Origin: a virus
Taxonomy: Duplodnaviria; Caudoviricetes
Strand: one strand, 5' to 3'
DNA length: 56,740 nt
IMG/VR virus record: IMGVR_UViG_3300032278_003763
Coordinates: 1-56,740 of that record
How positions within the stretch are numbered: position 1 is the stretch's first letter; each line of letters starts with the position of its first letter. A model generated the notes under the pieces. It saw only the letters and a list, made by a program, of their open reading frames with translations, did no database searches and was not told the origin of the DNA. Made by a program: the position numbers and the translations under genes. This document shows positions 9,665 through 56,740 of the stretch, in pieces.

Positions 9665-9667
9665 TTT

Positions 9668-10474: not shown

Positions 10475-10475
10475 C

Positions 10476-32167: not shown

Positions 32168-32173
32168 TTGACC

Positions 32174-34439: not shown

Positions 34440-34465
34440 TAGACTTCTTTAAACAAATATATATT

Positions 34466-36660: not shown

Positions 36661-37529
36661 AAATAGGAATAATAGGTTTAGGGTATTGGGGGAAAAATAT
36701 TTTTAACGTCCTTTCTAAGACGGACCACGAGTTAATCTTGTGCGACCCCTTTTTGACCAATAAGGATCCTTATTCGGGGTATTCATTTCGTGAGGATTAT
36801 AGACTGCTCAATTGTGACGTAGTCTTTGTCATTACCCCGACCTCGACACACCATGAGGTGTGCAAGTATTTTTTATCTGAAGGCACTTCCGTCTTCTGTG
36901 AAAAGCCGTTGTGCCTATCTGTTGAAGAAGTGGAAGATCTATATAAGACCGCGGAAAACAACCAGTGTTATCTTATGACTGATTGGATTTTCTCCTTTAA
37001 TGATGAGCTTAATTTTATCAAATCAGAGTTTGAGAGCGGAGAATTTGGAGGCATTAAGAGCGCTTTTTGCGAGAGACTGAACCTAGGGCCAGTGAGAACT
37101 GACACCAACGCTCGTTGGGATTTAAGTTCTCACGATGTTTCAATAATCACTTATCTTTTTAATGAAATGCCTCATCGTGTTTGTTGGCTGGATACGCGCA
37201 GAAATCCGTCGTCTCAGCTATGCGATACAAGCATTGGCGTCATAACATATAGTAATTTTTATGCTTCGATTCATTCTAGCTGGGAGTACGAAAAAAAGAG
37301 AAGCAGGAAGCTAACGTTTGAGTTTGATCATTGCGTGGTCGAGTGGGACGACGCTGAGAGAACTGTAAAGCGGGACGGAATTATCATAGCAAAAGAATTA
37401 TCCGACACTTCTCCTTTGGAGTATTCTATTTCGTCTTTTCTTTCTATAGAATCAATGCTTTACAGGTTTCAAAAGGAATTAACTTATAAAACCACTTTAA
37501 TTTTATGCAGGTCAAGTTTAACAATCTAA
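36657..37529 (+). CDS. Gfo/Idh/MocA-family NAD-dependent oxidoreductase
   Basis: IGIIGLGYWG, VFCEKPL and WDLSSHD. Confidence 0.9.
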   Translation: MKIGIIGLGYWGKNIFNVLSKTDHELILCDPFLTNKDPYSGYSFREDYRLLNCDVVFVITPTSTHHEVCKYFLSEGTSVFCEKPLCLSVEEVEDLYKTAENNQCYLMTDWIFSFNDELNFIKSEFESGEFGGIKSAFCERLNLGPVRTDTNARWDLSSHDVSIITYLFNEMPHRVCWLDTRRNPSSQLCDTSIGVITYSNFYASIHSSWEYEKKRSRKLTFEFDHCVVEWDDAERTVKRDGIIIAKELSDTSPLEYSISSFLSIESMLYRFQKELTYKTTLILCRSSLTI

Positions 37530-38617: not shown

Positions 38618-39582
38618 AAAACTCAGACAAAATATTTGTAGCTGGCCACGACGGCATGGTCGGTTCCGCGATAGTAAGAAAGTTGAGAGCGAAAGGACAT
38701 CACGACAACGTCTTTACTGTGCCTCACGAAGACGTAGACTTAACCAGACAAGATCAAACGGAGGACCTTTTCGAAAGGCTGAAGCCAGACATAGTTGTCA
38801 ATTGCGCGGCAAAAGTAGGCGGAATTCACGCCAACAATACCTATAGAGCGGAGTTCATATACGAGAACCTGCAGATACAAAGCAACATCGTACATAGTTC
38901 TTATAAAGCCGGAGTCGAGAAGCTGTTATTCTTGGGTAGTTCTTGTATATACCCTAAGTTCGCAGACCAGCCCATTAAGGAGGAGTATCTGCTTTCTTCT
39001 CCGCTGGAAGACACCAACGAGCCATACGCTATAGCCAAGATAGCGGGCGTCAAAATGTGTGAGAGCTATAATAGGCAGCATGGGTGTAATTTCGTTTCGG
39101 TTATGCCCACTAATTTATATGGGCCATACGACAATTACCACCCAGAGAATTCTCACGTTTTTCCTGCTTTCATTAGGAGATTCCATGAGGCGTACGTTTA
39201 CAATAGCAAGAACGTAAAGTGCTGGGGCACGGGTAGAGCTAAGAGGGAGTTCTTACATGTTGACGAGTTAGCAGATGCTTGCTTTTTTATTCTTGAGAAT
39301 GTAAATGCTGAAGATTTGAGTAGACAAGGAATTTCTCACCTTAATATAGGTACCGGCCAAGACATATCCTTACATGATCTTGCGTACCTGATTGCTGACG
39401 CTAGTAAATATGAAGGCGCGATAACCTTTGACCTAGATAAACCAGACGGGACGCTAAGAAAGCTGTTGGATGTCTCCAGACTAAAAGACCTTGGTTGGAC
39501 GAATAAGACCTCTTTGATCGACGGGATTATTTCTACCTGCGAATGGTATAAGGAAAATAAAGACACATGGAAAAAGATATAA
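38614..39582 (+). CDS. fcl: GDP-L-fucose synthase
   Basis: AGHDGMVGSA, AAKVGGIHAN, LGSSCIYP, YAIAK, MPTNLYG, WGTG...REFLHVD and KPDG. Confidence 0.95.
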   Translation: MKNSDKIFVAGHDGMVGSAIVRKLRAKGHHDNVFTVPHEDVDLTRQDQTEDLFERLKPDIVVNCAAKVGGIHANNTYRAEFIYENLQIQSNIVHSSYKAGVEKLLFLGSSCIYPKFADQPIKEEYLLSSPLEDTNEPYAIAKIAGVKMCESYNRQHGCNFVSVMPTNLYGPYDNYHPENSHVFPAFIRRFHEAYVYNSKNVKCWGTGRAKREFLHVDELADACFFILENVNAEDLSRQGISHLNIGTGQDISLHDLAYLIADASKYEGAITFDLDKPDGTLRKLLDVSRLKDLGWTNKTSLIDGIISTCEWYKENKDTWKKI

Positions 39583-40664
39583 TTAAAAAAGTGTTGGTTA
39601 CAGGCGTGCTTGGTCAAGACGGAGCGAACATGTGCGAGCTCTTACTCGGAGAGATGAATAAGCTCGGGACGATGAAAGTATTTGGCATGGCGAGAAGATT
39701 ATCTAATCCTAATTATGTAAATTGTAAATCTTTTTTGAGTCACCCCGACTTTCAATTGGTTTACGGAGATCTTTCGGACGAGGTGAGCATAAACAGATTG
39801 GTTCAGGAAATACAACCAGATTATTTTATCAATTTCGCAGCCAATTCTTTCGTAGGTTGTTCGTGGGGTATGCCGCTTCAGGTTTTTGACGTTAACAGCC
39901 TCGGCGTCTTAAGATGCTTAGAGGCAGTTAAGAACTACAAGCCGGACTGCCGGTTTTATAGCGCTGGCAGCAGCGAACAGTTCGGTGACGTAGACTATTC
40001 TCCTCAAGACTTAAACCATCCTTTTAAACCAAGAAGCCCTTACGGCGCTTCTAAATGTGCGGCGCATCACATCATAAAGGTGTACAGAGATTCTTACGAT
40101 ATGTATGCAGTACAAGGGGTACTTTTTAATCACGAAGGCACTAAGCGTGGAGAGGAATTCGTGACAAGAAAAATTTCAAAAGGCGTAGCTAGGATATATA
40201 GCGAAATTAAAAACGTGAACAACTGGAGAGGGCGTCACGGGGTGGCTGCAGAATTTGACCCAATCGAATTAGGAAACCTTGATTCTAAAAGAGACTGGAG
40301 CGACAGCGAGGATTTTATGAAAGGCGTTTGGCTTATGCTGAACCAAGGAGAACCCAAGGACTATCTCTTAGCAAGCGGAAAGACCCATTCCATAAGAGAG
40401 TTCGTAGAGGAGGCTTTCTCCGCGCTAGGCCTTGAAGGTCATTGGGAGGGCGAAGGCTTAGAAGAAAGATACGTGGGTTCCGGTGGTAAGTATAAATATG
40501 TCTTCGTAAAGGTTAATCCAGACTTTTATAGACCTGCGGAGATAGAGATATTGCATGGGGATCCCTCCTCGGCTAAGGAAGAGCTTGGGTGGTCTCCCGA
40601 GATTTCGTTTGATGATTTAGTCAAAAAGATGGTTAGACATGATCTAAAACTTTTACAGAACTAA
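39567..40664 (+). CDS. gmd: GDP-mannose 4,6-dehydratase
   Basis: VTGVLGQDG, PRSPYGASK, LFNHE...FVTRKI, LGNLDSKRDW and RPAE. Confidence 0.95.
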   Translation: MEKDIIKKVLVTGVLGQDGANMCELLLGEMNKLGTMKVFGMARRLSNPNYVNCKSFLSHPDFQLVYGDLSDEVSINRLVQEIQPDYFINFAANSFVGCSWGMPLQVFDVNSLGVLRCLEAVKNYKPDCRFYSAGSSEQFGDVDYSPQDLNHPFKPRSPYGASKCAAHHIIKVYRDSYDMYAVQGVLFNHEGTKRGEEFVTRKISKGVARIYSEIKNVNNWRGRHGVAAEFDPIELGNLDSKRDWSDSEDFMKGVWLMLNQGEPKDYLLASGKTHSIREFVEEAFSALGLEGHWEGEGLEERYVGSGGKYKYVFVKVNPDFYRPAEIEILHGDPSSAKEELGWSPEISFDDLVKKMVRHDLKLLQN

Positions 40665-41014
40665 TGAACGCAATTGGGGAGATGATGAAGATAGGCGTAT
40701 CTAAAGGGTTTGCGTTCCATCTTTTGAAAAAGTACCCAAAGGACTTGAAGAAGAAAATAGAGTTCTTTAAGTGGCTTCTTAAAGAGAAGAAGGCTTATTC
40801 TCACAACTATTTCGTTAAGATAGTTGAAAATGGTGCCAGCGGATATTATTTTGATGAGTTTTTGCAACACAAACGGGACGGGGAAGCCATAAAAAAACTC
40901 AAAGACGTTGCTAAGAAGGGACTGATTAGGCGCGAGGTTGGGAAAGAGAAGATAGGACAAGACAAGACGGTAAGAAGAAAGAAAAATATTTTTAATTTTA
41001 TTAACAATGAGTAA
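40664..41014 (+). CDS. Hypothetical basic protein
   Basis: 116-aa ORF translationally coupled to gmd and recA. Confidence 0.6.
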   Translation: MNAIGEMMKIGVSKGFAFHLLKKYPKDLKKKIEFFKWLLKEKKAYSHNYFVKIVENGASGYYFDEFLQHKRDGEAIKKLKDVAKKGLIRREVGKEKIGQDKTVRRKKNIFNFINNE

Positions 41015-42095
41015 AGAAAAGAAATCAGAAACCTCTCCCTTGAGCCAGATAGAAGCCTATCTGCAGCAGCACAAGGGTGACCATTACAATTTTGAAGAGC
41101 AGCGCGACTATACTATTTCTAGCGGAAGCCTTCTATTGGATATCGAGATGGGCGGAGGCATTAAGCCCGGCGTTGTGCGGGCCTCAGGAGTCACTGAGGG
41201 AGGCAAAACCTCTTGTGGCCTCGCTTTCGCCAAAAACTTTCAGAAGATGGACAACAGTATGGTTATCTACGTTAAGGCCGAAGGCAGATTGTCCGATGAC
41301 CTAATCGAAAGAATGGGTATAGATATCTCGCAAGACAAGTGGTTCGTTTTTAAGTGCAATGTTTATGAAACGGTTATTAACTTAATGAGGCAGATGGTGA
41401 AAGATAATCCTTCTGATACTCGGTATATGTTTATCATAGATTCTATGGATGCTTTGATTCCTCGGGGAGACCTAGAGAAAGGTTCAGAAGAGGCGTTGAA
41501 AGTGGGAGGGGGAGCGTTATTAAGTTCAGATTTTTTACGTAGGATGGCTTTGGGTCTAGCTACTAGGGGGCACGTATGTTATATGATTTCACAAGTGCGT
41601 AGCACGATCAAGATTAATCCATATGAGAAAACCACTCCTCAGGTAACGAACGCTTCGGGAGGCAACGCGGCTTTACATTATAGTGATTGGATTTTAGAGT
41701 TTCAACCGCGATACAACAAGGACGTAATCACCTCTGGAGCCAAGGGTAAAGAAGACATACTTGGACATTGGTGCAAGGTGACCTTTAGAAAAACGCCTAA
41801 TGAAAAGACCGGCGTTAGCGTAAGGTATCCTGTTAGATATGGTAGGGTAAACGGCAAGAGTATCTGGGTAGAGAAAGAGGTTGTTGATATGATGCTGGCT
41901 TGGGACATGGCCACGGCAAAAGGCGCGTGGGTTACTATTTCTGATGAGATTATTGAAGAAGTACAAGAGAAAATTGGCTTAGAGTTCAAGAAGCAGCATC
42001 AAGGGATGGATAACTTGAGCAAGTATTTCGAAGAGAATAAAGAGGTAGGTAAATATATGTTTCATAAATTCAGGGAAGCGCTCAAAAGGTCATGA
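41007..42095 (+). CDS. recA: RecA/UvsX-like recombinase
   Basis: SSGSLLLDIEMGGG, Walker A GVTEGGKTS, Walker B FIIDSMDAL, ISQVR, SGGNAALHYS and KGAWV. Confidence 0.88.
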   Translation: MSKEKKSETSPLSQIEAYLQQHKGDHYNFEEQRDYTISSGSLLLDIEMGGGIKPGVVRASGVTEGGKTSCGLAFAKNFQKMDNSMVIYVKAEGRLSDDLIERMGIDISQDKWFVFKCNVYETVINLMRQMVKDNPSDTRYMFIIDSMDALIPRGDLEKGSEEALKVGGGALLSSDFLRRMALGLATRGHVCYMISQVRSTIKINPYEKTTPQVTNASGGNAALHYSDWILEFQPRYNKDVITSGAKGKEDILGHWCKVTFRKTPNEKTGVSVRYPVRYGRVNGKSIWVEKEVVDMMLAWDMATAKGAWVTISDEIIEEVQEKIGLEFKKQHQGMDNLSKYFEENKEVGKYMFHKFREALKRS

Positions 42096-42841
42096 TTTCC
42101 CTGAAGCATAAGTTTCTTTTTATTCACCCCCCAAAGACAGCAGGCACCAGCATAGAGCAGGCTCTAATTGAACATTGTGAATTCATAGATTCTAAATTCC
42201 GGACGGTAGGGAGAAACCCTTTACCAATAAGGAGTCAGATGTATAGAGGGAGAAATACGAAACACTGGACCCCAAGATACTACTCGAACAATTTTGATAC
42301 TAGGGGGTTCTTCAAGTTTGCTAGCATAAGAAATCCTTGGGATAGGTTTGTGTCTTATTTCTTTATGTTAACCAAAGAGCCTTGGGTGCGTGAAAATTTT
42401 CATGAATTTATTGTTCAGTGCAAAAACGACTTTACCAATACTAGATTTTCTTTTTATAGGGGCGAGGAACTCCCTTCCCATGTTCCTGAAGAAGACGAGC
42501 ATTGGATGCCTTTAGCAATGACTGGTCGGTGTGTGGATTATGACAGATGGGATTTTCGGAGTTGTCATAAAATGCTTTTGATAAACCAAACCAGAGAAGG
42601 AGAAGAGATGGACCATTTTATCAGGTTCCATAATTTGCAAGGAGACTTTGATGAGGCTTGTGATAGGATAGGAATATCTCGGAAGAAGCTTCCTCACCAT
42701 GGAAATGGAAGAGCGCCCGTAGAAAATGGGATGGGCTACACCAAACATTATACTGAATATTATGATGACGAATTAATAGAAATCGTTGCCAAAAACTATA
42801 AAGATGATATAGATTATTTTGGTTTTAAATTTGGAGAGTAA
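42092..42841 (+). CDS. Sulfotransferase (Sulfotransfer_2-like)
   Basis: FIHPPKTAGTS, IRNPWDRFVSYF, IRFHNLQGDF and YKDDIDYFGF. Confidence 0.88.
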   Translation: MISLKHKFLFIHPPKTAGTSIEQALIEHCEFIDSKFRTVGRNPLPIRSQMYRGRNTKHWTPRYYSNNFDTRGFFKFASIRNPWDRFVSYFFMLTKEPWVRENFHEFIVQCKNDFTNTRFSFYRGEELPSHVPEEDEHWMPLAMTGRCVDYDRWDFRSCHKMLLINQTREGEEMDHFIRFHNLQGDFDEACDRIGISRKKLPHHGNGRAPVENGMGYTKHYTEYYDDELIEIVAKNYKDDIDYFGFKFGE

Positions 42842-42843
42842 TA

Positions 42844-43527
42844 ATGATAAGTTTTGAAAAACGTTTTATTTTTGTGCACACTCCCAGAACTGGTGGGACG
42901 AGCATGGAAGAAGCCTTGATGGAAAGTGTCCGAGATTGTGATATACATGATGGCACTAGGCACTGGCCCTTAATAGCTTACAATAGTTCTTGGGCCAAAC
43001 TTCAAACCGGCGCTCGGTGGAATAGTTCTCTAAAGTCTGGGGACACGGTCCCCTTGTATGTTGAGTCGAAGAATTTGATTGATGACTACTTTAAGTTCAC
43101 TGTGGTTAGGAATCCTTGGGACAGAATGCTTTCGTATTTTTTGCATCTTAATGGAGGGTTTGACGAAAGGTTATTTCCCAAAATGATCAGGTTGGCTGGC
43201 AAGTCTGGAGAAGGATTTTATCCTTTCGTTAATAGAGAAAGACATAACCTTGGAGAGGACGACATCTTCCGCGTCAATTTTCAAAGTTGTCATAGCATGG
43301 CCCACAATAAAGACGGAGCTAACTCTATTGACTTTATATTGAGATTTGAAAACCTTCAAGAAGATTACGACGCCCTGTGCGATAAGATCGGGATAGAGAG
43401 AACAGAGCTTCCTCACCACAATAAGTCTGATCGGGGTCACTATAGAGACTACTATAAAAAAAGAGAGATAGATATCGTTCGCAAGAACCTTAGACAGGAT
43501 ATAAAAAAATATGGCTACGAATTTTGA
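42844..43527 (+). CDS. Sulfotransferase (Sulfotransfer_2-like), tandem paralog
   Basis: FVHTPRTGGTS, VRNPWDRMLSYF, LRFENLQEDY and DIKKYGYEF. Confidence 0.88.
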   Translation: MISFEKRFIFVHTPRTGGTSMEEALMESVRDCDIHDGTRHWPLIAYNSSWAKLQTGARWNSSLKSGDTVPLYVESKNLIDDYFKFTVVRNPWDRMLSYFLHLNGGFDERLFPKMIRLAGKSGEGFYPFVNRERHNLGEDDIFRVNFQSCHSMAHNKDGANSIDFILRFENLQEDYDALCDKIGIERTELPHHNKSDRGHYRDYYKKREIDIVRKNLRQDIKKYGYEF

Positions 43528-44143
43528 TCAAAAGAAATGGTGGGAATATGTTGGAAGCCACCCGGACATAAAGGGCACAAAAACCCACATATGGACACCC
43601 CATAAAGAAGGCGGGGCTTGGCAGGCTACGCCTATATACGAACCCCACCTAAAGATACTAAAGGAGAACATAAAGTTTGACAAGGTTTTAGACTTTGGTT
43701 GCGGTTTAGGTCGCAACTTTCCGACCCTAGAGGCTCTCTTTGAAGAAATACACGGGTTTGATACCTGCCCAATGGTTGACAAGCTCGTCTCAATTCATGA
43801 GGAAGAGGGGCTTGGATACGAATTGCTTACCTGTGATTGGGACGCCCACAAAGATAACGTGTTCGATTGTGTTTTCGAATGCACGGTTCTTCAACACATA
43901 CCAACGGAAGAGGTGAAGTCCAGATTAAAAGACATTAGTCAAATGACAGAGTATTTAGTTGGTAATTTTCGCAGCTTTAATGACCAAAACAGAGACTTCA
44001 AGCAGAACTTTGGCGGCCACAATATGATGCAGTTAGTTGAGGAAGTTGACGCTTTTGATATTGTTGACTGCTCTATAGACCCTTGGTCTGCGGCTACGCT
44101 AATGGATGATACGCACTACAACATTCTTCTGAAGTCAAAGTGA
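43511..44143 (+). CDS. Class I SAM-dependent methyltransferase
   Basis: VLDFGCGLGR and FDCVFECTVLQHIP. Confidence 0.88.
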   Translation: MATNFDQKKWWEYVGSHPDIKGTKTHIWTPHKEGGAWQATPIYEPHLKILKENIKFDKVLDFGCGLGRNFPTLEALFEEIHGFDTCPMVDKLVSIHEEEGLGYELLTCDWDAHKDNVFDCVFECTVLQHIPTEEVKSRLKDISQMTEYLVGNFRSFNDQNRDFKQNFGGHNMMQLVEEVDAFDIVDCSIDPWSAATLMDDTHYNILLKSK

Positions 44144-44556
44144 GGTTATATAATATACATGGGAAGCTCGTTAGTAAAAACGTCTCGAAATACTTAATTA
44201 AATGGGACGGAAAGTCTCGTTCGAATATACAGTTCAAAACCAAGCAGTTTCTTAAAAAGCATTGGAGCAATCAAATAGTTTACGAGGAGTTTCCTGTATA
44301 TGGTACCAGAATGAAGGTAGACATACTAAACGCTACAAAAAAGATAGCAATAGAGGTCCAAGGACGTCAACATACTAGCTTTAATAAATTTTTTCACGGC
44401 AACTCCAGACTAAAATACCTAGAGTCAATTAAGAGAGACTTTCAGAAGAGAGAATGGCTCAAAAAAAACGGCTTTCAGGTAGTAGAAATAGAAGAAGATG
44501 AGGTAAAAAAGCTTTCTGTTTCCTTTTTTTTAAAATTCTTTAATATAAACGTATAA
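44140..44556 (+). CDS. DUF559/Vsr-like PD-(D/E)xK endonuclease
   Basis: EEFPV...VDILN...IAIEVQGRQH...RDFQKREWLKKNGFQVVEI. Confidence 0.8.
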   Translation: MRLYNIHGKLVSKNVSKYLIKWDGKSRSNIQFKTKQFLKKHWSNQIVYEEFPVYGTRMKVDILNATKKIAIEVQGRQHTSFNKFFHGNSRLKYLESIKRDFQKREWLKKNGFQVVEIEEDEVKKLSVSFFLKFFNINV

Positions 44557-44566
44557 TCCCAATAAC

Positions 44567-44578
44567 AGTGTAATCATT
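44567..44578 (+). promoter_or_regulatory. AGTGTAATCATT motif (putative late promoter of the giant gene)
   Basis: 12/12 identical to 18353-18364. Confidence 0.6.
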
Positions 44579-44584
44579 CACAAT

Positions 44585-44734
44585 AGGTGTGTCGGTGACA
44601 CCTTTAAGGCGACGGGCGAGTGAAATGTTGAGGGATTTAGGATTTTTTTGTCATTTTTTCAGGAAGGTGAGCCCTTTTGGGGCTCATCATCGCTTCTTTG
44701 TCGCCCCATCATTTCAGACGGGGGGGAATAACTA
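44585..44734 (+). promoter_or_regulatory. Structured 5' leader of the giant gene
   Basis: Hairpins AGGTGT/ACACCT and TGAGCCC/GGGCTCA, crossing pairings GGCGAC/GTCGCC and TGAAATG/CATTTCA, then a G-rich RBS-like run before ATG 44735. Confidence 0.45.
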
Positions 44735-47700
44735 ATGCCTTACTATTCAAGGGTGCTGCACGGGGCGAGTATGCCGCCAATTGAGCTGCAAAGTTGCATG
44801 GCCAGCATGTTGGACTGCCCTCTGGTTGGCGGTTCGGACACGGACCCATGTGGTAACACTGCGTGGATTGAGCCTGTTACCGTTTATTGGGATAGTAGTG
44901 AGGGTGGTAACGCCACCTTGCCGGATGTTGGCCAGACTCTTTATTGTGACGATCAAGATTCGTATGCGTATGCAGTCAATAGTTATTTTGATGATATGGA
45001 CGGAAATGGCTGTTGCGACTGTCAGGATGCTGGCTTCACTACGATGATAAATTCAGACGTAGATCATTTTTTGGCTTCTGGCAATGAAGATGGTTATTTT
45101 TTCATGCAGTCGGATGACGACGGAACTAATACAACGGAGAGTTGGGAGATAGGAACTGATTCGACGTTTAATTCTGTAAGCTCTTGTTCTGGCACTCCGA
45201 CACCAACACCTAGTCCATCACCATCACCGACGCCGTCGCCGTCACCGTCACCGACACCGTCATCTACGCCCTGTTATACTGCTGAGACAGCTCACGTTTC
45301 TTATTATGATGAGTCCAACGGCTACTTGAAATATGCTAATAACTCTAGCGGAAGTTGGGTAGACACGACCGTTTCCGATACCGCTACGGATGGATTTTAT
45401 ACTTCTATTGCTATTGACAGTAGTGGTAAAGTGCACATAAGTCATCACGAAGAGTACCGTTCCCTTCGATATACAACTAATACTAGCGGGAGTTGGGTTA
45501 CCACAGAGGTAGACGGCAATGATGTCACTGGTAAGTGGACATCCATTGTTGTAGATAGCAACGACAACCCACACATAATTTATGTAAGCGAAGAGGATCA
45601 GGAGGTTAAGCACGCCACGTGCTCGTCGGACACCTCTGTCGCCGGCAACTGGACAATTGAAACGGCTTTTTCGGGGGTTGAGCCCAAGTGGGCTTCTGTT
45701 GCTATTGCTGATGATTATCTTTATCTCAGTTTTGCTGACGATGGTATGCTTGTCACAGCTACCAATTTCGGTGGAGGTGGTTGGGTTTCCGAGCCCTTAT
45801 TTTCCGAAGGTCTATACTCATCGATAACTTTAATAAAAGACGGTAGTGATATATGGCAACGGCATATAAGCCATGTTGATTCTAGCACCGGATATCTTAG
45901 ATATACGTATAGCCACGGATCTTCTAGTTGGTCGGTGGAGAATATAGATACTACTGTATATACAACATATACTTCGATTGCTGCTGCTTCAGACGGCTCC
46001 CTTCACATATCTTATGGGGACGAGGATAATTATGCACTTAAATATGCCACGAATGAACATGATGGTACGAATTGGATAATAGAAACAGTTGATGATGGTG
46101 ACGCTGGAAGCAATACTGTTGGCGAATGGAGCTCTATCGCTGTAGATGGGAACAACGTTGTTTATATTTCTTATTATGATGATACAAATGCAAACATAAA
46201 GGTCGCCGATAACCATTGTGGTTGGAGCATTCAAATTGCAGACGATGAGGATTTGGAGAGCGGTGATACCGTAGGACGATACACCTCTTTAGCTCTTGGC
46301 GCCGGCGGTGCTACCGATACGCCTACACCATCACCTAGCCCTAGCCCTACGCCATCGCCGTCACCAACGCCTACGCCCTCGCCGTCACCAACGCCTACGC
46401 CCTCGCCGTCACCAACGCCTACTCCTTCGCCGTCACCAACGCCTACTCCTTCGCCGTCACCAACGCCTACTCCTTCGCCGTCACCAACGCCTACTCCTTC
46501 GCCGTCACCAACGCCTACGCCATCACCGTCAGCTACTGCGTCACCGTCACCGACGCCTACTCCTTCGCCTTCGCCTTCGTCGATATGCCCACCCACGGTT
46601 TACGCCTACGGCTTCCAAGCTCCCAACGCTCACTTTAATGGCACTTGGCAAATAATTAGTGTCATTGTTAATGGTCGTGAGGTTTATCGAACCGGCTCGC
46701 CCGGTGCGTATTGGTATATGTGGTACGGCGTCGGTGGATGGAAAATGGGCAATTTGGTAACTGCTGATTGTTCGATGGATACCGACGAAAGTTGTCCGGA
46801 ATCAATTAGCGCAGGAGACTGGGGGGCGTGTGGTGGCACGACAACCACAGGCACTGGGACACCATCACCTAGTCCGTCACCGACGCCGACGCCGTCGCCT
46901 AGCCCGACGTCGGAGGGTGATGATGGATGTGATGGGTGTGTAGACGTGACTGGATTTGATGCGGTAGCTAATGGAACCCTAAATGGAGTTTATACAAGGG
47001 GGGCTTCGCTCTGGTATGGAAAACCGTATTGGGAGAAGGGCACCAATGGTACGGGGTTTGCTTACGCATATATTTATTATAATCCAGCGAATAGTAGATG
47101 GGAAATAAGTTACGCTACTTTTTATGATAATGGCATCGGTGTCGCTTGGTGGGCGACACAAGACACTGATCAAGCTTGCCCGTTCTCAAATTTAGACGGT
47201 TGGACTTCTAGCGGTAATGTTGGAGGCACCCCACTCTTAGCGACGAATAGTTGTCCGACTGAGACCCCTACTCCGTCGCCGTCACCGTCTCCTAGTCCGT
47301 CGCCCTCGCCATCAGCTACTGCGTCACCGTCACCAACTCCCACGCCCTCGCCATCAGCGACGGCGGGGGGTTGCCAAGGATGCGAAGACCCCGAGTATCC
47401 GGGGACATATGCCGCATTGTGGAATTATCCTAATTTTATTGATTACTGCGATGGAGATGGTCCAACTATAGCTTGTTACAAAGGTAGGTGCTATAGATGT
47501 ACTGAGTATGTAGGACCGAACGGCGCCAACAACTTACCCCCAGATCAGACAGATAAATGGGTGATAGATGATTGTTGTGATGGTTCGTCTTGCTGCCCGA
47601 CTGGGTCACCGACTCCTACGCCGTCACCGTCACCATCACCCACGGCATCATGCGATGGTGAGACATGCGGAGACTTTTTCTCTTGGGTGAGCTGGGAAGG

Positions 47701-50700
47701 TCTCAATGAAAATAGAGATTATAGTAGTCCGATAGGTCATCATATTTGTTACGATGATAAGTGCTATGAATTAATAGGAGCGCATGGAGCAAATGCGGGT
47801 GGTCAGCAATACGAGCCGGGGGTAGATGGGTCAGAGGCTTATTGGAAAGAGGATATTTGTTGTACTGAATTAGCTTGTTGTCCGACGAACACTCCGACGC
47901 CGTCACCATCGCCGTCACCATCGCCGTCGCTCTCTACCCCAATAAAAGTTCCAATCACTTTATATGCTAAATCTAGATCACGACTTAACCCTCCCGGGAA
48001 AGATCCAGAATTTGTATACTTTGGTTATCAAGAGGGAACGGAAGAAACCCTGACTTGTTGTAGTCTGGGCAGTTTATCTACGACTGTTTACTATTTTGAT
48101 GATCCAGACGAAAATCTTCGAACAGGGGTGACTTCGGGCACAAAACTATATTTAAATTCGGTCCTTGACGATTATACAAGAGCCGAAAGCCTTCAATTGG
48201 CTGCGCCAGACCCCTCACCTGAAGATAACCTGTTCCTCATAGAAGGCGATCAGTATGTTATAATTGGATTGTCCGGTGATGACATAATCGTAGATGAGAT
48301 AGACGATTGTATGTGTCCGACCGAGACCCCTACTCCGTCGCCGTCGGCCACCGCGTCACCTACCCCATCACCATCAGCTACCGCGTCACCGTCACCGTCA
48401 GCCACCGGGTCGCCATCTCCATCGCCTAGCCCGACTCCTTCTTGCCCGGCTTGCGACATAGGACCTTACAACCCAAATGAATGTCTATATCTTACGGGCG
48501 CGGACGGGTCTGATGCAGCTCGAGTTTGTCATGATGGGATTTGTTATATAGCTGCCGTCCCCAATGGTTCTTGTGTTAGAAGCCAATGGGATGATCCGGA
48601 TTATCCGTACGTGGGTTCTTCTATGTGGCTTGATTCATCATCTCGCTATGCTCTTGAGCAGCTAAAGAAAAATGATGGTGAGACTTTATATACCGCGGAG
48701 CAGGTTGATACAATAATATTTGAGTTAGAATGCTGCAGCGGTAGCTGCTGTGGAACACCGTCGCCGTCACCGTCACCGTCACCATCAAGCACGCCAGAGG
48801 ATCAGGATCAGGCCTCTGTTGAATGTCTGGGCTGTGGCGAGTTAGATATTTTGCCTTGGAACGACAGCCAACCGGTCGATTACGAAGTCCAGATTGCCGA
48901 CCCAGATACTGGAGAATTTCCTCAGACTTACGTATGCCATAATGGTAAGGGTTATAGACTCTTAGAGAGCAACTCTTCTCAGGAAGGAGCCGGGAATTAT
49001 CCTTATGCTGTGCCCGGTGAGGACGATTCGATGTTCTGGCTCGAGGACGAATGCGCTAATCTTTGTTGTCCTACGTCAACCCCGTCACCAACCCCGTCAG
49101 CAACGCCTAGTCCGTCGCCAACGGTGACCCCCACCGCAACGCCAGAGCCGGGCGTGGTTTGGAAGGTAAAATTGTGCGTAGGTAGTCAATCGGTGTCCTT
49201 TTTCAGATTCCCTGACGATTTTGACCCTGACTCGGAATTCGTAAGATTGACCGCCGTGGGTGCTGAGTCCGGTTATTGCTATGAAATAGAGGGTGGGGCG
49301 GGAGCAGACCATGCTGAATATGAGGCTTGGGAAGCTCAAGGCAATACGGTAGTCGAAATAAAAGGTAGCGAATGGGGAATTAAAGAATTCGATAGCTGCA
49401 AAGAGTGCGTTTATGGGAGAATGGTCGAATGGACTGCTTGCTCGGGTGAAATTAATTATGTTTTTGTTGGGGATAATTCTTGGCAACCCGCAGCGGGAGA
49501 TCAGACTACTTGGAGTAATCTACAAGGTTTTAAATCAGATCATATACCGGGAGATGAGGGTGTGGATACTTGGACGGTAAGTCATAGTGGCGCGCTTGCG
49601 CAGGGCCGAACCAACACGTGTTACAAGGTCGCTTATATACCCCCCTCGCATGATGATTATAGCGCAGGCTTTCCTATAGCTTTAAATAACTATAGGGACA
49701 CCGGCTTTACTTATGCTTTTGATAACCAAGTTAATGAAAGCATGCTCAATTGGTGGCAAAGCGGCGCGGAAGGCCCGCCCAAGTATCAAGATGTACATGA
49801 TGTCTGCGAAGATTGGTGGCAGTGTGCTAAAAGAATTTACAGACATATCGATTTTAGTTTTAGTTGTGATACCGGTCAGTGGATTGACCCCGACAACCAA
49901 GAAGCCGGAGTTGTAGCCGAAGGACCAGTAGGCAGCCCCGAAACTGCCGCTTGGAAACCTAAATTGTGGCTTAACGGCGGTGCCGATTTCACCGGATTTG
50001 CAGAGTGCTCTCTCCCCACTCTGGTTACAGAGGGATGGCACCACCATCTCACAGAGTATGATGCTGATGGTAAAGCCGAAATTATTTGGTATAGATATAC
50101 TTGGCCGGTTAGATATAACCAAAATTTTGTAACTTATCAGGGCGGCGTCCCTACGGTCACGAATAAACATGATCAAAAATGGGGTAACGTTGGGCCTCAC
50201 GTAGGATGCGCTGACATTAATGATAAGGCAACGGCAGCCGATGCGGGATTGACTGAAGGTGAGAAAATTGTAAAGGATGTATCAACAGACCCAGCCGAAT
50301 ACGATGGCACAGAACAGACAGAGAAACTTAATATCATAGCGGGTCTAGATTCAAAATTTAAATTTAGAGAAATTTATCAGAATAATGGGCAAAATTATTG
50401 GAGAACAGTCGTTCCATCCGAGTGTCAGCTAACCACACAGACGACGCCCACGCCGACGCCTACACCCTCTCCCAGCGTAGAGCCGGCGGGAGCTAATTAT
50501 TATTTACTTACTCCTTGTGGACAAACAATAGGAACAATAGACTTTAATAGTTCTTATATAACTAAATTTAAAACCAATGTAGACCTTGATGATAAAAATA
50601 ATAGGGTAATTAAAATTAGCTCTAATTTTTTCCCGCTAAGAGTAGATAGTTATTCTTTACCAAGCAACATTTATAATGGTCCATGCGTAAAAGTACAAAA

Positions 50701-53700
50701 GATAACCCAGTCAGAGTACGACACTCCCGGTGGAGGACAAAGGGTAGATGGAACACTAAACAAGTACCTCCCCTCCTTTGGGTTCGAAGACACGAGTGGG
50801 ACAGAAGAAGAAGATTTAACGACACTGTGCAATCTATGCGTTAATACAACCGAAAGCGAAATACGCGTAAGATTAATAGAGTGCGGCACGTCTAGCGCCA
50901 AAGAATTCATATTAAGAGCTGACCCAAATAATCTTTTAACACACTTACCTAATAATGTAGTAAATGCAATTAGATTTAATTCTCCTAACCCTTACGTTAT
51001 AAAGGCTTATCAAGCAGTATACACACAGGGCGGCTTGCTGAACGCCCTTACTCTAGTGGATCAAGTTGCCAGTTTAGCTACCGCCGCCTGTTATACCGCT
51101 GTTCAAGAGATTGTCGACACTACCTATACTATTAATGATTATATATATCTTCTTGATGAAGGCGTTAATTGTTTGGATAGAGACTGTTTAGAGAGCACTC
51201 TCTCCGAACAGTTGGGGTGCGAAGAAGGTGCATCTCACGTAGTCAGAAACAAAACCCCGCAACAGTCTTGCGTAGATGGTTACGCAGAGTATGTAAACTC
51301 CATAGATGATGGAAGTGATGAAATCATAAGTTATGGGCAGTTTGTTTCTCAGGAGTGTGAATGCGTTGGGGGAGAAATTCCTTTAGTCCCGACATTACCT
51401 GCCGAATTGGAATGTTGGAGCGAACACATTCAGTATGAAGATAAAGCGAAAGTCTGTTTTAACAGTTCGGTTTATATAGCGTATAACTCAAGCGTGAGTA
51501 TCCCTCCGGCGGGAACTGCTGAGTCGGTTTTGTTTTGGACAGAGTCAACGGTACCAGAATACATAGATCTCTGCCCCAAGGATTGTCCAGATGTTGGACC
51601 TACCGCATCACCATCGCCGTCACCATCGCCGTCGCCATCACCGTCGCCGTCGTCTATTTCTCCTCCTCCTTTACCTCCGGTTGGGCCTACGCCTACCGCT
51701 ACGCCTACGCCATCACCGTCAGCTGAAGCACCGGATTTTGATTGTCCTAGCGTTAGAGTTGCTGACTCACCGTATCCTGAGATTAATCAATGTTATACAT
51801 TCTCTCAAGGCGCGTTCTACGGGGAGAACAATGATTCGCTTATAATGTGGAAGATCCATTTGTTTCAAGGTGAGAGATGGGTTATATCCAAGTACGATTC
51901 TCTGAATAATGCAGCTGGATGGGTTCCCCATCACGTTGCTAGATATAATACTCACTATGGTTATGACTTTCGGACGCCGACTCAAAATCCCGTGCCGGGA
52001 GATTGGATGGGTGGCGGCGAGTGTCCTCACGAAAAAATTGAGATAATGGATACCAACGGCTCGTACCTCGCGAACAACTGGGGCGCGACGTATCTTAGTG
52101 GTGAGATAACTGTCACTGAAGGCTGTCCGACTGGGTCGCCATCGCCAACGCCATCGCCGTCAGCCACTGCGTCACCGTCACCTAGCGCTACTGCGTCGCC
52201 ATCAGCTACCGCGTCACCGTCACCAACGCCGACGCCATCACCGTCAGCTACCCCGCTAGCTGAGACCCCTACTCCGTCGCCGTCACCATCGCCGTCTCCC
52301 AGCCCGTCAGCCACTGCGTCGCCGTCAGCTACTGCGTCACCGTCACCTAGCGCTACTGCGTCGCCGTCAGCTACTGCGTCACCGTCGCCGTCGCCATCGC
52401 CTACGCCGGGTTCACCTTTAACTTGTGCTGAAGCAGACATAACAACCTTCATAAAAGACAGCGTCGAAGAAAATAATGCAGTTTTCATTGGTGAAAGCCA
52501 CGGAATGATGTCTACACTGAGGTACCTGACAGATAAGACGACTGATATTTTGCCTCCGGTGGCCAACGAAGAAGCCATCCACTATTCGCGAGTTTTCTTC
52601 ACCGAGCTTCTTTATTCTGGCGACTCGAGCACAAAGATCGTATCCGACTACCAAGCGAAGGTGTCGGCCCTTGGCATACTGGCTAGTCAAGGGACTCCGG
52701 AACAATGCGCCTTGATAGAGTCACTGAAAGATCGAGGAGTCGATCAGCAGGAAGCACTCTGTTGCCACAATGCTTGGACACCGGCAGAGGACCGTCCTGA
52801 TGCCACCTTGCCCGAAGAAGGTTTTGCAATGGAGATGGTTAAGCTGATAGAATCAGTTACGCTTGCGGGTATTGAAGTCTTAGGTGTTGAAACACCTCCC
52901 TCGGACCCGGCTTACATTTTGGCAGGCAGAACAACCCCCACAGGGGTAGTAGCCCGAAACAACCAATGGGCGGCCGTCATTAATAAATGGTTGGAGGAAG
53001 AAAATGACTGGCGCACCTTCAACGCTCCGCTGATGGGGGAGCCTACGTTTATTATTCATGGTGGCTCGGATCACGGTAGCGAAGGGAGAGTGCCGACCGA
53101 TACTGGTGTAGATCAGATGATTTTTAAGGACGGGGTATCATCCGACGCGGGTGGCCACATGGATATAGACTCTTTTGATTTTCGGTTTCCTTCGTGTCCT
53201 GAGGCAATCGCTGCAAGGTTTGGGATTGATCCCGCTGCATATGGTCCATGGGCTGGGATACCAGCCGCTGAGCTGGATGGCGAGGGGTACAAGTATGGTC
53301 TTGCCAGAATGTCCTCCAGCAGCGGTGGCAATGATCATGCTCCTGCAAACTTCGATACGGGGCTTGGTCCGTACGAAGAAGGACCCTGTATGTGTTTGTG
53401 GGAAAACGATGGGCGTTTAAACCAAGGAAACTATGATCAGACCCAAGACGCGTCAAGTGATTATATAGTTTTCATAAACGTATGTTCTGAAGATGGTCTT
53501 TCTTATGTTAATTATGATTGTACTACCCATAGTCATCCATACGACGAACCGAATTGTCCAACCGGCACAGCGACACCGACACCGTCTCCTAGTCCGTCGC
53601 CGTCACCATCAGCCACTGCGTCACCGTCACCGTCACCGTCACCGTCACCATCATCTACCGCGCCGGAGACTGTTTTTCTATATAAATTTGCTCTTGCTGA

Positions 53701-56700
53701 AGTGTCCGCATCTGATGCTAAATATGTTTGGCAGTCGCGTGTAGATGGAGCTCCAGAGTGTCTTGATCCGCAAAGCGTTACCAGAGGCAAATGGCTAGTA
53801 AGCAAAGATCCGACATCAGGAGAATGCATATTTGAATATTATTATGAAGATTTAGATAAGCTAATACCAGATGGCGCTGAAACCGAATGCATAGACGACG
53901 GGGTAAATGTCTTTTCGTTGGCCCCCCAAATACCGTTTGCGCAAAACCCTTACGTATTAGAGCCGTTTTTAATTAATGTTGATGGTTCTCTCAATGTAAA
54001 CTCTATCCCTTCAGAGATTAAGACTTTCATAGAGGATAAATGCTCGGACATTCTGCCTCCTGACGGGCCGACAGATACCCCAACGCCGTCGCCATCAGCA
54101 ACACCGAAAGGAGATTATTGCGGAGTTAGATTTAGAGTAGGAATAGAGGTTGATGATTGGGATCCTCAAGAAACCAAGGTTTGGCATCCCGCGAGCGAGT
54201 CTTGGGTACTTAATCCAAATTCGAGCTCGGTTCTTTTTGGGGGGGACCCAGCAACTCGTTATTACAAAACTTTTGGCATTGGCATGTCAGCACAGGATCC
54301 ACCGGAGGTGATGATCCCGGGGCCGTATGATGATAATGGGGTACTTGGAGAACTTATATGCACAGAAAAATTTCATAATTGGGAGTTTATTAAAGAGTCT
54401 GGCGGAGGACCCCAAGGTGAAGATATATGTTACTTTGAAAAAATACTTCCAGTTGTTACAGACGAGCAAGATGGTTTAGGTCGCATTGAACTATGCCAAG
54501 GCGAGTTTTGTACTAAGGAGGGCATAGACTTAGAGCGCTTGTCTTCTTTTGGCGAGATTTATGAAAATCATAAGGGGGAGATTAGATTAACTAGAAGTCT
54601 TCTTTGGGGAATATCTAAGGCCCTATCGAAACATTGGATGGTTGATGAGAATGATGAGTTGGATTCATTATATGGACAAGTTAGAGATGCTATAGCTCCA
54701 GATTATTCTTCAAAGGAAGGTGGCTTTTTCGAGTTTAAGCTTCAGGGCGATGTTCAAAATGGTTTTGATAGTGGTGGTTGGACTCTTTCAGAAGAGGGTC
54801 TTATAAGAACGGTTTATAAATGGTGGCAGGGTTTCGCCATCGGTACGGACGCGACAGGACTTGCGTGGGCAATCAAGAACAATCGGGTTTGGATTTCCGA
54901 AAACATGGGGCAATTGGCTTTCGACTGGATGACAAGACACGGTAAATCCGTTCCTCATGCGGGGGTCGATGCTTTGTATGATTATAGTGACCTTCCTGTT
55001 ATTGGTGGTTTACCGGGAATATCAAAGGCGACAAATCCTGCTCTTTCTTATAATGAAAAATGGAACGGATTAATCTTAGCCCGTATACATCCGGGTGGGG
55101 CTATTGATGATGACCGGGAGACTTGGCATGGCAAGTGTCTTTCTACAGCAACGCCATCGCCATCACCGTCGCCGTCAGCTACTGCGTCACCGTCAGCTAC
55201 CGCATCGCCATCACCGTCAGCTACCGCATCGCCATCACCGTCAGCTACCGCATCGCCATCACCGTCAGCTACTGCGTCACCGTCGCCATCACCCTGTGGT
55301 ACTGCAACGCCGTCACCGTCAGCTACTGCGTCACCGTCAGCTACCGCGTCACCGTCACCATCGCCATCGCCATCACCGTCAGCTACCGCGCTAGCATGTC
55401 AGCGTATTCCAATTAAAGTAGTTTATGATGTATTTCAGTTCAATAAGTCGCAAGGAACTAATCCTGTTCAGACAGGTATATATTCAGGATTTAGTGGTAA
55501 AGATCAGGCCTGTGATGCAGACGAGTTCCCGACTATAACCGTCTATACTGACACTTTAATAAATGGCGTTCTTGATGGGGGGGAAATTCTTTATAAAAAC
55601 TGTGAACTTGAGGATACTTCGCCTGCTCTTCTAAGCGATCAGATTGCCGGCCCCGAAGAAAAGTGGTATAAAGTTCTTGAGATAAACGATGTTAGAGTGG
55701 GTGGACAAGCCTCGCAGAATGAGTCGATGTATATGTCTGTTAGACTGCATGTTGGCATAGCGGGTGCCGTTGATACCCTCAAAGTGGAGGAAGCCGACGT
55801 GTGTGCTACCCCATCACCATCACCGTCTCCTAGTCCATCACCGTCAGCTACTGCGTCGCCATCACCGTCGCCGTCAGCTAGTCCATCACCGTCAGCTACT
55901 GCGTCGCCATCACCGTCAGCTACCGCGTCGCCGTCGCCGTCAGGCACTCCGTCACCATCGCCGTCAGGCACTCCGTCACCGTCGCCGTCAGGCACTCCGT
56001 CACCATCGCCGTCAGGTACCGCGTCACCGTCACCGTCAGCTACCGCATCGCCATCACCGTCAGCTACCGCATCGCCATCACCGTCAGCTACCGCGTCACC
56101 GTCACCGTCTCCTAGTCCGTCGCCGTCAATTACTGCGACACCATCACCGTCGCCTACCGGTACGCCGTCGCCGTCAGCTACTGCGTCACCGTCGCCAACT
56201 CCCACGCCGTCGCCATCACCCTGTGGTACTGCAACGCCGTCACCGTCAGCCACTGCGTCGCCGTCAGCTACTGCGTCGCCGTCGCCGTCAGCTACTGCGT
56301 CGCCGTCGCCAACTCCCTCGCCGTCGCCATCACCCTGTGGTACTGCAACGCCGTCACCGTCAGCCACTGCGTCGCCGTCAGCTACCGCGTCACCATCGCC
56401 GTCTCCTAGCCCGTCGCCATCACCGTCAGCTACTGCGTCGCCATCACCGTCAGCTACCGCGTCGCCGTCGCCGTCAGCTACTGCGTCGCCATCACCGTCA
56501 GCTACTGCGTCGCCATCACCGTCAGCTACTGCGTCGCCGTCACCGTCAGCTACTGCGTCACCGTCACCGTCAGCTACTGCGTCACCGTCACCGTCAGCTA
56601 CTGCGTCACCGTCGCCGTCAGCTACTGCGTCACCGTCGCCGTCAGCTACTGCGTCACCGTCACCGTCAGCTACCGCGTCGCCAACGCCAACACCGTCGTC

Positions 56701-56740
56701 ATCACCGTCAGCTACTGCGTCACCGTCACCGTCAGCTACT
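44735..56740 (+). CDS. Giant modular Cys-rich protein with mucin-like S/P/T/A linkers (at least 4,002 aa, 3'-truncated; putative virion fibre/adhesin)
   Basis: ATG at 44735 ([21 protein letters not shown]...). Frame +2 read open in every segment I translated, up to the last codon (...[13 protein letters not shown]). Its absence from the ORF track is consistent with there being no stop in the window. Confidence 0.92.
46367..46510 (+). repeat. 24-bp tandem repeat x6 (TPTPSPSP)
   Basis: acgcctacgccctcgccgtcacca x2, then acgcctactccttcgccgtcacca x4. Confidence 0.9.
52127..52417 (+). repeat. Low-complexity S/P/T/A coding linker repeat
   Basis: Degenerate tcgccgtcagctactgcg / tcaccg units. Confidence 0.85.
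55140..55390 (+). repeat. Low-complexity SPSATA coding linker repeat
   Basis: Repeated tcgccatcaccgtcagctaccgca units. Confidence 0.85.
55805..56740 (+). repeat. Long SPSPSATA tandem repeat tract (over 900 bp, runs off the window)
   Basis: Mostly 24-bp units of the form tc(a/g)cc(a/g)tc(a/g)ccgtcagctac(t/c)gcg. Confidence 0.9.

Follow-up and report, generated by a model that had tools for sequence, protein, structure and literature searches.

The stretch of DNA analysed here, referred to as the window, is the whole 56,740-nt IMG/VR virus record IMGVR_UViG_3300032278_003763 (Duplodnaviria; Caudoviricetes), which is a fragment of the genome of an uncultured marine siphovirus. Its last 12 kb are occupied by one giant open reading frame (ORF), at 44735..56740 on the plus strand, which is the subject of this work. 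A first-pass annotation had described this region as open in frame +2 from an ATG to the end of the window, and full translation bore this out: 4,002 codons were read without an in-frame stop and with an open 3' end, as compared to 169-344 stops in each of the five other frames over the same 12,006 nt. Given the base composition, the chance of a frame this long remaining open is about 1e-84. The start codon is preceded by a G-rich, Shine-Dalgarno-like run. When the relative synonymous codon usage (RSCU) of the 3,134 globular codons was compared with that of 12 other genes of the window, a correlation of r = 0.78 was obtained, against -0.02 and 0.40 for the two shifted frames. The codon score of the individual domains was higher in frame than in both shifted frames in 14 cases out of 16, and the G+C content at third codon positions (GC3) and codon scores of the domains broadly resemble those of the rest of the phage. 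This is a genuine gene, truncated at its 3' end, and 44735-56740 are its first 4,002 codons.

A simple composition rule divided the encoded protein into 16 globular segments of 77-439 amino acids (aa), D1 to D16, and 16 linkers. The beads-on-a-string alternation noted in the first-pass annotation was reproduced at all 16 linker positions, each no more than 11 nt off. The linkers sum to 868 aa, 840 of which are Pro, Ser, Thr or Ala (298, 285, 147 and 110, respectively), so that Ser and Thr together amount to 432. The drift of linker composition from a PTPS to an SPSATA type was also recovered, with Ala accounting for 0-13% of linkers 1-11 and for 16-22% of linkers 12, 15 and 16. Both Pro/Thr/Ser-rich linkers between folded modules, as in modular carbohydrate-active enzymes, and long Ser/Thr/Pro-rich tandem repeats, as in mucin-like O-glycoproteins, are present.

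The chain (all coordinates on the plus strand) opens with D1 (aa 1-151, 44735..45187), an acidic N-terminal domain with eight Cys and no signal-like hydrophobic stretch, and with linker 1 (45188..45271, 28 aa, PTPS type). D2 (aa 180-528, 45272..46318), a beta-propeller of lectin/sialidase-like fold, has seven '(Y/W)(T/S)S(I/L)A...H(I)S(Y)...LKYA...W' repeats and is followed by linker 2 (46319..46582), whose 88 aa are encoded by a 24-nt tandem array with 96% matches. D3 (aa 617-704, 46583..46846) and D4 (aa 727-843, 46913..47263) are paralogues (E 7.8e-5) separated by linker 3 (46847..46912, 22 aa). Linker 4 (47264..47365, 34 aa) leads to the small D5 (aa 878-954, 47366..47596, ten Cys) and, beyond linker 5 (47597..47650, 18 aa), to the equally small D6 (aa 973-1052, 47651..47890, eight Cys), both belonging to an internal family that we call A2. 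After linker 6 (47891..47929, 13 aa), D7 (aa 1066-1197, 47930..48325), a weak paralogue of D16 (E 0.016), and linker 7 (48326..48442, 39 aa), two further members of A2, D8 (aa 1237-1339, 48443..48751, ten Cys, with an insertion) and D9 (aa 1355-1445, 48797..49069, six Cys), flank linker 8 (48752..48796, 15 aa). Linker 9 (49070..49123, 18 aa) precedes D10 (aa 1464-1902, 49124..50440), an orphan of 439 aa with 12 Cys, and linker 10 (50441..50476, 12 aa) precedes D11 (aa 1915-2287, 50477..51595), an orphan of 373 aa with 16 Cys whose C-terminal ~85 aa (51341-51595) align with A2. Linker 11 (51596..51724, 43 aa) carries an ISPPPLPPV insert; D12 (aa 2331-2464, 51725..52126, 134 aa) has 12% identity to D3 in an alignment (A3) and no BLASTP match to D3 or D4.

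Linker 12 (52127..52417, 97 aa, SPSATA type) is followed by D13 (aa 2562-2941, 52418..53557), an alpha/beta-type domain with GESHG and GGSDHG motifs, linker 13 (53558..53665, 36 aa), the orphan D14 (aa 2978-3114, 53666..54076), linker 14 (54077..54106, 10 aa), the orphan D15 (aa 3125-3469, 54107..55141, 345 aa), linker 15 (55142..55390, 83 aa, SPSATA type, one Cys) and D16 (aa 3553-3690, 55391..55804). The terminal linker or tail (aa 3691-4002, 55805..56740), which had been estimated at more than 300 aa, measures at least 312 aa before it exits the contig; its only non-linker residues are I3799, C3830 and C3868, and its DNA has a 24-nt period (38.6 copies, 77% matches). The gene is incomplete, because the contig breaks within this last SPSATA repeat. 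The isolated linker cysteines C3521, C3830 and C3868 (codons at 55295, 56222 and 56336) recur in a common motif, and such odd, lone Cys residues inside spacers could form inter-chain disulfides.

Integrity of the assembly

Parts of the last 10 kb were found in 20 public runs from seawater, marine plankton, marine and, in one case, hydrothermal-vent metagenomes; the eight run rows that name a study lead to five studies. Since this DNA recurs in marine metagenomes of several studies, it comes from a real, widespread phage and is no one-off artefact. Run X1 contains 0.95 of the sampled words and is a possible source of the contig; runs X2, X3 and X4, from another study, contain 0.63-0.48 of them. 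No RNA run is among the listed sequencing runs that hold the stretch.

Frame continuity alone is weak evidence of a correct assembly, because a join through coding Pro/Thr (PT) repeats keeps the frame automatically. For this reason, contigs of X1-X4 (k = 31) were matched to 44500-55830 and the bridging of linkers was judged among the matches listed. Contigs of X1 span linkers 3, 4 and 5 (46523-47927) and linker 10 (49090-51652), contigs of X2 span linkers 4, 5 and 6 (47077-48208) and linker 8 (48426-49018), and a contig of X4 spans linker 4 (47232-47624), all with 0 mismatches; a contig of X3 spans linker 10 (50081-50979) with one differing letter. Six of the 15 internal linkers (3, 4, 5, 6, 8 and 10) are therefore bridged among the matches listed. 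The suspicion, voiced beforehand, that the repeat region might be a misassembly of separate loci thus found no sign of a mis-join wherever contigs bridge, and it keeps its hold on the nine internal linkers that are unbridged among these matches.

Runs X2, X3 and X4 cover 26, 29 and 28 of 30 bins, respectively, at similar low depth; in X1 and X2 some stretches of the ORF have no coverage. X1 shows a few joints of low depth from one linker to another (short sides of 20-42 nt, depth 2-4.7), which look like cross-matches between repeats. Exact words common to different linkers are no longer than 35 nt, except for one of 67 nt between linkers 15 and 16, and whole linkers are only 60-75% identical to each other. 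Contigs of X2 and X4 match up to 45267, in linker 1, and then continue with differing sequence for 118-255 nt; these loose ends could represent a strain variant after D1 or another PT-linker gene. The repeat copy numbers within the long arrays are uncertain.

The assembly consists of this one contig, which starts inside a tape-measure gene and ends inside the giant ORF, leaving only the upstream side of the latter visible. Extension of the contig, as had been recommended, yielded no continuation, and a metagenome scan with D15-D16 found nothing. The truncated ORF at the other end of the contig (3..8798) was considered as the continuation of the giant gene and rejected: it encodes a tape-measure-like protein in a different frame, and therefore the contig merely broke in the SPSATA repeat.

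Modules and their relatives

The globular parts are strongly acidic (482 Asp plus Glu vs. 174 Lys plus Arg), every domain being net negative. Cys makes up 3.6% of the residues of the giant protein, as compared to 1.2% in the other ORFs; 15 of the 16 domains contain an even number of Cys, and a Cys lies within about 10 residues of the N-terminal boundary in 13 of the 16 domains and of the C-terminal boundary in 14. A hydropathy scan of the whole protein revealed no transmembrane-like segment (no 19-aa window above 1.38), and the same kind of scan, as distinct from a dedicated predictor, gave no signal peptide in the first 60 aa (maximum 15-aa hydropathy 1.04). The pattern seen is that of apparently disulfide-stapled extracellular modules in a protein presumably not exported by Sec, and it fits release by lysis, either on the virion or free.

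D2 gave the clearest structural result. Its AlphaFold2 model, based on an 83-sequence alignment, had a mean predicted local distance difference test score (pLDDT) of 87.6 and a predicted template modelling (TM) score of 0.88, with 27 strands, and together with the seven sequence repeats it identifies D2 as a seven-bladed beta-propeller with a fold like that of sugar-binding lectins and sialidases. In Foldseek the best full-length matches were Photorhabdus PLL/PHL lectins (6rgg, 8q83, 5mxf and others; TM 0.68-0.72, 12-15% identity over 338-349 columns), which are complexes with fucosides and other sugars, followed by sialidases, a pseudaminidase, glycoside hydrolases and fungal fucose lectins. 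The BFVD ranking was led by large Bacillus phage G proteins and by proteins from uncultured marine viruses. At the sequence level, a search with D2 gave 583 relatives at E ≤ 1e-3 (best 38% identity, E 2e-101). They come from uncultured bacteria and archaea and combine the domain with PKD, Ig-like, Fn3, BNR_4 and type IX secretion system (T9SS)-sorting domains. Many of these relatives carry a precomputed match to PF15892 (BNR_4); D2 itself gave only a sub-threshold match to PknH_C in Pfam.

A D2-like propeller was also found in four viral contigs, two of which share their ORF layout, which leaves three distinct contexts. In all four the propeller gene sits in a head or tail module. In one of them (L002, 7916-11059) it is flanked by the genes of the major head protein and of a virion structural protein, with a glycosyltransferase next to it; in the two that share a layout (L003 and L004) the propeller is part of a 1,364-aa ORF directly after a tape-measure-like gene, and the structural module of L003 (5563-13738) also has a sialyltransferase-like gene; in the last (L005) the propeller ORF itself matches a tail-protein PHROG. 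None of these contigs has PT linkers, and D2 is the only domain that they share with the giant protein.

The other 15 domains are without usable relatives in the libraries searched. With the whole protein, 24 matches at E ≤ 1 were obtained among PDB sequences, all best on linker 2 or on the terminal linker, and they therefore reflect low complexity only. A tblastn search with aa 1-3000 against 50,697 phage records gave no match. In an exhaustive phmmer search of D13-D15 against 1.84 billion representative proteins, 16 matches were found at E ≤ 1e-3 and none at E ≤ 1e-10; only two proteins, P0003 (E 5.7e-9) and P0004, touch the globular D13, the rest centring on the following linker, and D14 and D15 had no match in this set. 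D10-D11 had no relatives among proteins of 2,201-7,004 aa, and among shorter proteins the only match was a 100%-identical fragment of 400 aa; D10 retrieved nothing in Atlas.

Within the protein, D3 and D4 are weakly related, as are D5, D6 and D9, to which D8 and the C-terminus of D11 are more weakly related; the similarity between D7 and D16 is weak. The alignment of family A2 (D5, D6, D8, D9 and the D11 C-terminus) has six invariant columns (C, D, C, Y, W, C). In Pfam no A2 module had a match at E ≤ 0.1, and the modules were not assigned to carbohydrate-binding module (CBM) family 5/12.

The GESHG and GGSDHG motifs of D13 are kept in P0003, and we take motifs of this type to be a mark of the ChaN/Tiki/EreA-like superfamily. 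P0003 is 26% identical to D13 over 375 aa in BLASTP (E 1e-23 against a database of the 16 domains, E 1.9e-16 against the proteins of the window), and D13 had Atlas feature scores of 0.90 to ChaN and 0.89 to HopBA1 clusters. D13 itself had no match in Pfam at E ≤ 0.1, its profile had none among PDB sequences, and its alignment found no relative in reference prokaryote genomes. A ChaN/Tiki-type identity of D13 is a lead only.

Upstream genes and genome context

Upstream of the giant ORF lies a block of glycan genes of about 12 kb (32168..44143, plus strand), for which an action on the giant protein is proposed. The block encodes two GT2 glycosyltransferases, three sulfotransferases (one Sulfotransfer_1 and two Sulfotransfer_2), a formyltransferase, a methyltransferase, a GFO/IDH/MocA oxidoreductase (UDP-GlcNAc-3-dehydrogenase-like) and a DegT/PseC-like aminotransferase, together with genes resembling those of GDP-L-fucose synthase (457 bits, cut-off 500) and GDP-mannose-4,6-dehydratase (331 bits, cut-off 415). 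A GT9-like gene and another glycosyltransferase lie outside the main block; the large glycan gene set spans 32168-44143 (+) and also 20212-21393 (-) and 24464-25543 (+). The presence of three sulfotransferases alongside fucose synthesis within one phage gene block struck us as notable. Judging from these genes, the phage could presumably make GDP-fucose and an amino or formamido sugar, and transfer, sulfate and methylate them. The block ends 590 nt before the giant ORF, with only an HNH gene in between (HNH/DUF559-like endonuclease, 44140-44556, +), and contains a RecA/UvsX-like recombinase gene (41007-42095, +); the RecA-like and HNH genes may be a trace of mobile-element traffic around the giant gene.

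A similar arrangement was observed in locus L001, the only locus found with a relative of D13 (P0003). Here, genes of GT2/GT92-like glycosyltransferases and sulfotransferases, the latter 29-46% identical to those of the window, lie directly upstream of three consecutive ORFs with PT-rich stretches and without signal peptides (7037-8746, 8819-10096 and 10093-11823; 569, 425 and 576 aa, respectively). The heads of these ORFs differ, one having an HExxH motif (HEIIH) and one being D13-like, and all three end in the tag DPH(I/V)TTFFGEKYDM. This may be a docking or processing tag; it resembles the 'GDPH...TF.G..Y' sequence with which von Willebrand D domains begin. The window has no copy of it, but the C-terminus of the giant ORF lies beyond the contig; it was not found in the viral contigs, nor its core in reference genome contigs. 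L001 has the look of a related system whose parts are unfused, and the link between glycan block and linker protein is less likely a coincidence because L001 repeats the layout.

Upstream of the giant ORF there is a sigma-70-like promoter candidate (TTTAAA-17-TATAAT, 44529..44557, +; 10 of 12 consensus positions, a consensus match only), about 180 nt before the start codon, and, in the 178-nt leader, a 7-bp GC-rich hairpin (TGAGCCC-TTTTG-GGGCTCA, 44668..44686, +) about 50 nt before it. The hairpin has no T run after it, and no terminator was called there. The first-pass annotation had also reported a 12-bp motif in common with a tail-region gene and had suggested on these grounds that the giant protein is a late structural product. 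The exact 12-mer AGTGTAATCATT is indeed present at both sites (44567..44578, +, and 18353-18364), but the partner site lies upstream of a TIG-domain ORF (18418-19452, +) beside the tail block and not of a recognised tail gene. About 1.1 shared 12-mers of that kind are expected by chance; with up to 2 mismatches there are 8 sites, whereas shuffled sequences have 5.8 on average and reach 8 in 22 of 100 cases; the local score of the two upstream regions, one of 18 comparisons, was reached by 6 of 200 shuffles; and the similarity between the two sites stops at 12 nt. The motif includes a -10-like TGTAAT, and a similar element also precedes a ribonucleotide reductase (RNR) gene. A search for a common promoter motif in 10 intergenic regions returned only the bare 12-mer and T-rich tracts. 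Being at chance level, the motif is uninformative on late expression, and the argument built on it is unsupported.

The rest of the window is that of a tailed phage. The ORF at 3..8798 (+), 5'-truncated and at least 2,931 aa long, has PHROG tape-measure matches; tail length follows a rule of about 1.5 Å per tape-measure residue, and a protein of this size implies a tail of at least 440 nm. This ORF runs head-on into lambda-type tail-tip genes on the minus strand, which encode minor tail proteins, a tail assembly protein and a J-like central fibre of 1,701 aa (10476-15581, -, PHROG E 2.9e-148), with a 4-nt overlap with the end of ORF 8795-9664, a layout unusual among lambda-like tail modules. 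Downstream of the J-like gene, two ORFs (8795-10474, -) have Ig-like-type matches to fibre and decoration PHROGs. With the TIG/IPT-domain protein encoded at 18418-19452 (+), beside the tail block, they are further candidate surface-decoration proteins of the same phage. Other genes recognised through PHROGs encode a deoxynucleoside monophosphate (dNMP) kinase, a sigma factor, both RNR subunits, the RecA/UvsX-like protein and the HNH endonuclease; no tRNA gene was found in the window. The J-like and L-like proteins have at most 30-34% identity to phages of Pseudomonadota, and RNR has up to 46% identity. No close relative was found in the viral contig collection searched with D13, D1-D2, an upstream sulfotransferase, the J-like protein and P0003.

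What the giant protein may do, and known systems

With middling confidence, we read the giant protein as a long, flexible, multivalent glycan-binding fibre, probably on the virion, with linkers that are maybe O-glycosylated. The gene, its architecture, its recurrence, the propeller fold of D2, the lack of usable relatives for the other domains and the occurrence of such propellers in structural modules of other phages are established here, whereas binding, virion attachment and glycosylation are inferred. A structural role is the best guess because D2-like propellers occur in virion modules (in four of four contigs, three contexts) and because no secretion signal is present. Such a fibre would act outside the cell, where glycans on the host envelope or on particles in the sea would be probed by D2, by the five small disulfide-type modules and by the other domains, with the PT/SPSATA spacers giving a reach of about 250-300 nm if extended (estimated from the number of residues). 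Most likely the virion would carry it; otherwise it would be freed at lysis. The 432 Ser and Thr of the linkers would be O-glycosylated by the upstream block of GDP-fucose, amino-sugar, glycosyltransferase and sulfotransferase genes, perhaps with a sulfated and methylated glycan, and the linkers would thereby become mucin-like, stiff and resistant to proteases. There is a precedent for glycosylation of phage virions (Freeman et al. 2023, cited in PMC12619734), and the linkers of cellulases frequently bear glycans (PMC3490864).

Several results weigh against the reading as a glycan-binding virion fibre. None of the 16 domains scored above threshold in Pfam (two sub-threshold matches), at E ≤ 0.01 in PHROGs or in NCBIfam. 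D1 is without relatives in Pfam, PHROGs and viral contigs, and fibres usually dock via their N-terminal domain. The likeness of D2 to lectins is at the level of fold only (12-15% identity), and propellers have many functions. Per-domain structure prediction, proposed in the first-pass annotation, served well for D2, which folds confidently and leads through Foldseek to lectins, but the D13 model (three sequences) was unusable, with a pLDDT of 32.7. The match of P0003 to PF04187 is sub-threshold (E 0.0086, 16.5 bits, cut-off 27.7), and the best match of the A2 profile among PDB sequences, the chitin-binding domain (ChBD) of chitinase A1 (1ed7), is non-significant (E 0.29). D13, D3 and D1 have the most atypical codon scores, and linkers 1, 2, 7, 9 and 11-15 (nine of the 15 internal ones) are unbridged among the matches listed, as expected for k = 31 contigs. 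Finally, as far as the contig reaches, the giant gene lies outside the recognisable tail module, about 26 kb from the tail-tip genes and after nucleotide-metabolism and sugar genes.

As regards the glycosylation part only, it is quite possible, if somewhat short of an even chance, that the fibre is as described and the sugar block unrelated to it, modifying instead the envelope of the host (for serotype conversion or superinfection exclusion) or the DNA of the phage, with the linkers as plain unglycosylated spacers. Gene adjacency does not establish an enzyme-substrate relation, the action of these enzymes on the protein being only proposed, and RecA-like and HNH genes are found in or next to the block. 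Phage glycosyltransferase clusters have, moreover, established roles in modifying DNA and in converting the host serotype (PMC12619734). On the other side stand the recurrence in L001 of a glycosyltransferase and homologous sulfotransferases followed by PT-linker proteins, and the glycosyltransferase-like genes beside the propeller genes of L002 and L003. To these may be added the 432 Ser/Thr in a Pro-rich context, which are typical O-glycosylation substrates.

That the gene is real and its product not in the virion seems to us rather unlikely. The protein would then be a giant modular 'toolbox' of several enzymes or binding modules, comparable to bacterial modular carbohydrate-active enzymes, made late and released at lysis or kept on debris, with polysaccharides, particles or neighbouring cells as its targets. 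Secreted modular glycoside hydrolases have this architecture, in which small Cys-rich modules and PT linkers accompany larger domains (PMC3490864); the giant gene sits among non-structural genes and its product has no structural PHROG match; D13 may be enzyme-like, of ChaN/Tiki type, and a tagged neighbour protein in L001 has an HExxH motif. However, export from the living cell is not expected, because there is no signal peptide or membrane segment; no recognised glycoside hydrolase, polysaccharide lyase or carbohydrate esterase catalytic family and no CBM family was detected in the 16 domains with Pfam and NCBIfam; and the D2-like propellers of other phages lie in structural modules.

A bolder form of the virion-fibre reading, which we also consider rather unlikely, is that of a mucin-like glycoprotein fibre, sulfated and containing fucose, made by the phage itself. 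In it the giant protein would serve as scaffold and the upstream block would decorate its Ser and Thr, giving a virion with a sulfated coat and a lectin-like array, a counterpart of giant-virus fibrils for adhesion to algal or particle mucus or for shielding; L001 would have a related unfused version, made of separate proteins with a common C-terminal docking tag.

Very improbable, lastly, is a 12-kb frame that is partly an assembly artefact, in which PT-linker genes that are in fact separate, whether from this phage or from co-occurring organisms, were joined at similar repeats: the contig end within a repeat, the unbridged linkers, the X1 joints, the frame-keeping PT repeats, the 67-nt word in linkers 15 and 16 and the atypical codon scores of D13, D3 and D1 are outweighed by the mismatch-free bridging of six linkers (for four of these, in runs from a second study), by the co-occurrence of all parts in X2-X4 at similar depth, by exact words of at most 35 nt in the other linker pairs, below ordinary read length, by broadly phage-like GC3 and codon use, and by the short sides (20-42 nt) and low depth (2-4.7) of the odd X1 joints.

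If it is a virion fibre, the giant protein would illustrate how a marine siphovirus can search dilute seawater for hosts or particles with a range of unrelated binding modules set on flexible spacers. Should the neighbouring fucose and sulfotransferase genes decorate its linkers, virion glycosylation, until now known from mycobacteriophages, would be extended to sulfated mucin-like structures. Work on glycan binding would also gain a set of new small domains with disulfide bonds and a lectin-like propeller. Phage adhesins of modular build, PT linkers and glycosylated phage virions are each already known. In open-access PubMed Central (PMC) and bioRxiv we found no description of a giant linker-rich or mucin-like phage protein gene, nor of a phage gene of at least 4,000 codons with 16 modules on PT/SPSATA spacers behind a fucose/sulfotransferase block; the ORFs shown for P-SS2 in the available part of PMC2784084 reach only 1,886 aa.

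Among known systems, the glycosylated surface fibrils of Mimivirus and the Ig-like decoration protein Hoc of T4 offer two comparisons, the former for a virus glycan pathway beside a surface fibre and the latter for weak multivalent glycan adhesion; unlike Hoc, the giant ORF has no Ig-like family detected by Pfam. D2 superposes over its full length on the Photorhabdus PLL/PHL lectins, which we take to be seven-bladed as well, but with 12-15% identity and no sequence-level family match, and D2 is one module of a 4,000-aa chain. The PT/S-linker cellulases and chitinases (PMC3490864) likewise carry modules on PT/S-rich spacers, with small disulfide-type modules beside larger domains, and there is a weak, non-significant hint of the chitin-binding core motif of chitinases (1ed7, as above); the giant protein differs from modular carbohydrate-active enzymes in having at least 16 modules as compared to two to four, in lacking a signal peptide and a glycoside hydrolase or CBM family, and in being phage-encoded. 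With at least 4,002 codons it is comparable in size to the largest phage proteins that the abstracts of PMC13434306 and PMC10770324 name, with ~3,500 aa for the N4-like virion RNA polymerase and 5,002 aa for the P23-45 tape measure. Both of these are virion proteins of tailed phages; they are single-function proteins with recognisable homology, whereas the giant protein consists of unrelated small modules and low-complexity spacers. The mycobacteriophages with glycosylated virions (Freeman et al. 2023, cited in PMC12619734) use their own glycosyltransferases on their own structural proteins, placing glycans on the C-termini of capsid and tail-tube subunits; the same principle is proposed here from genes alone, for a separate, giant, linker-rich protein and a block that includes sulfotransferases.

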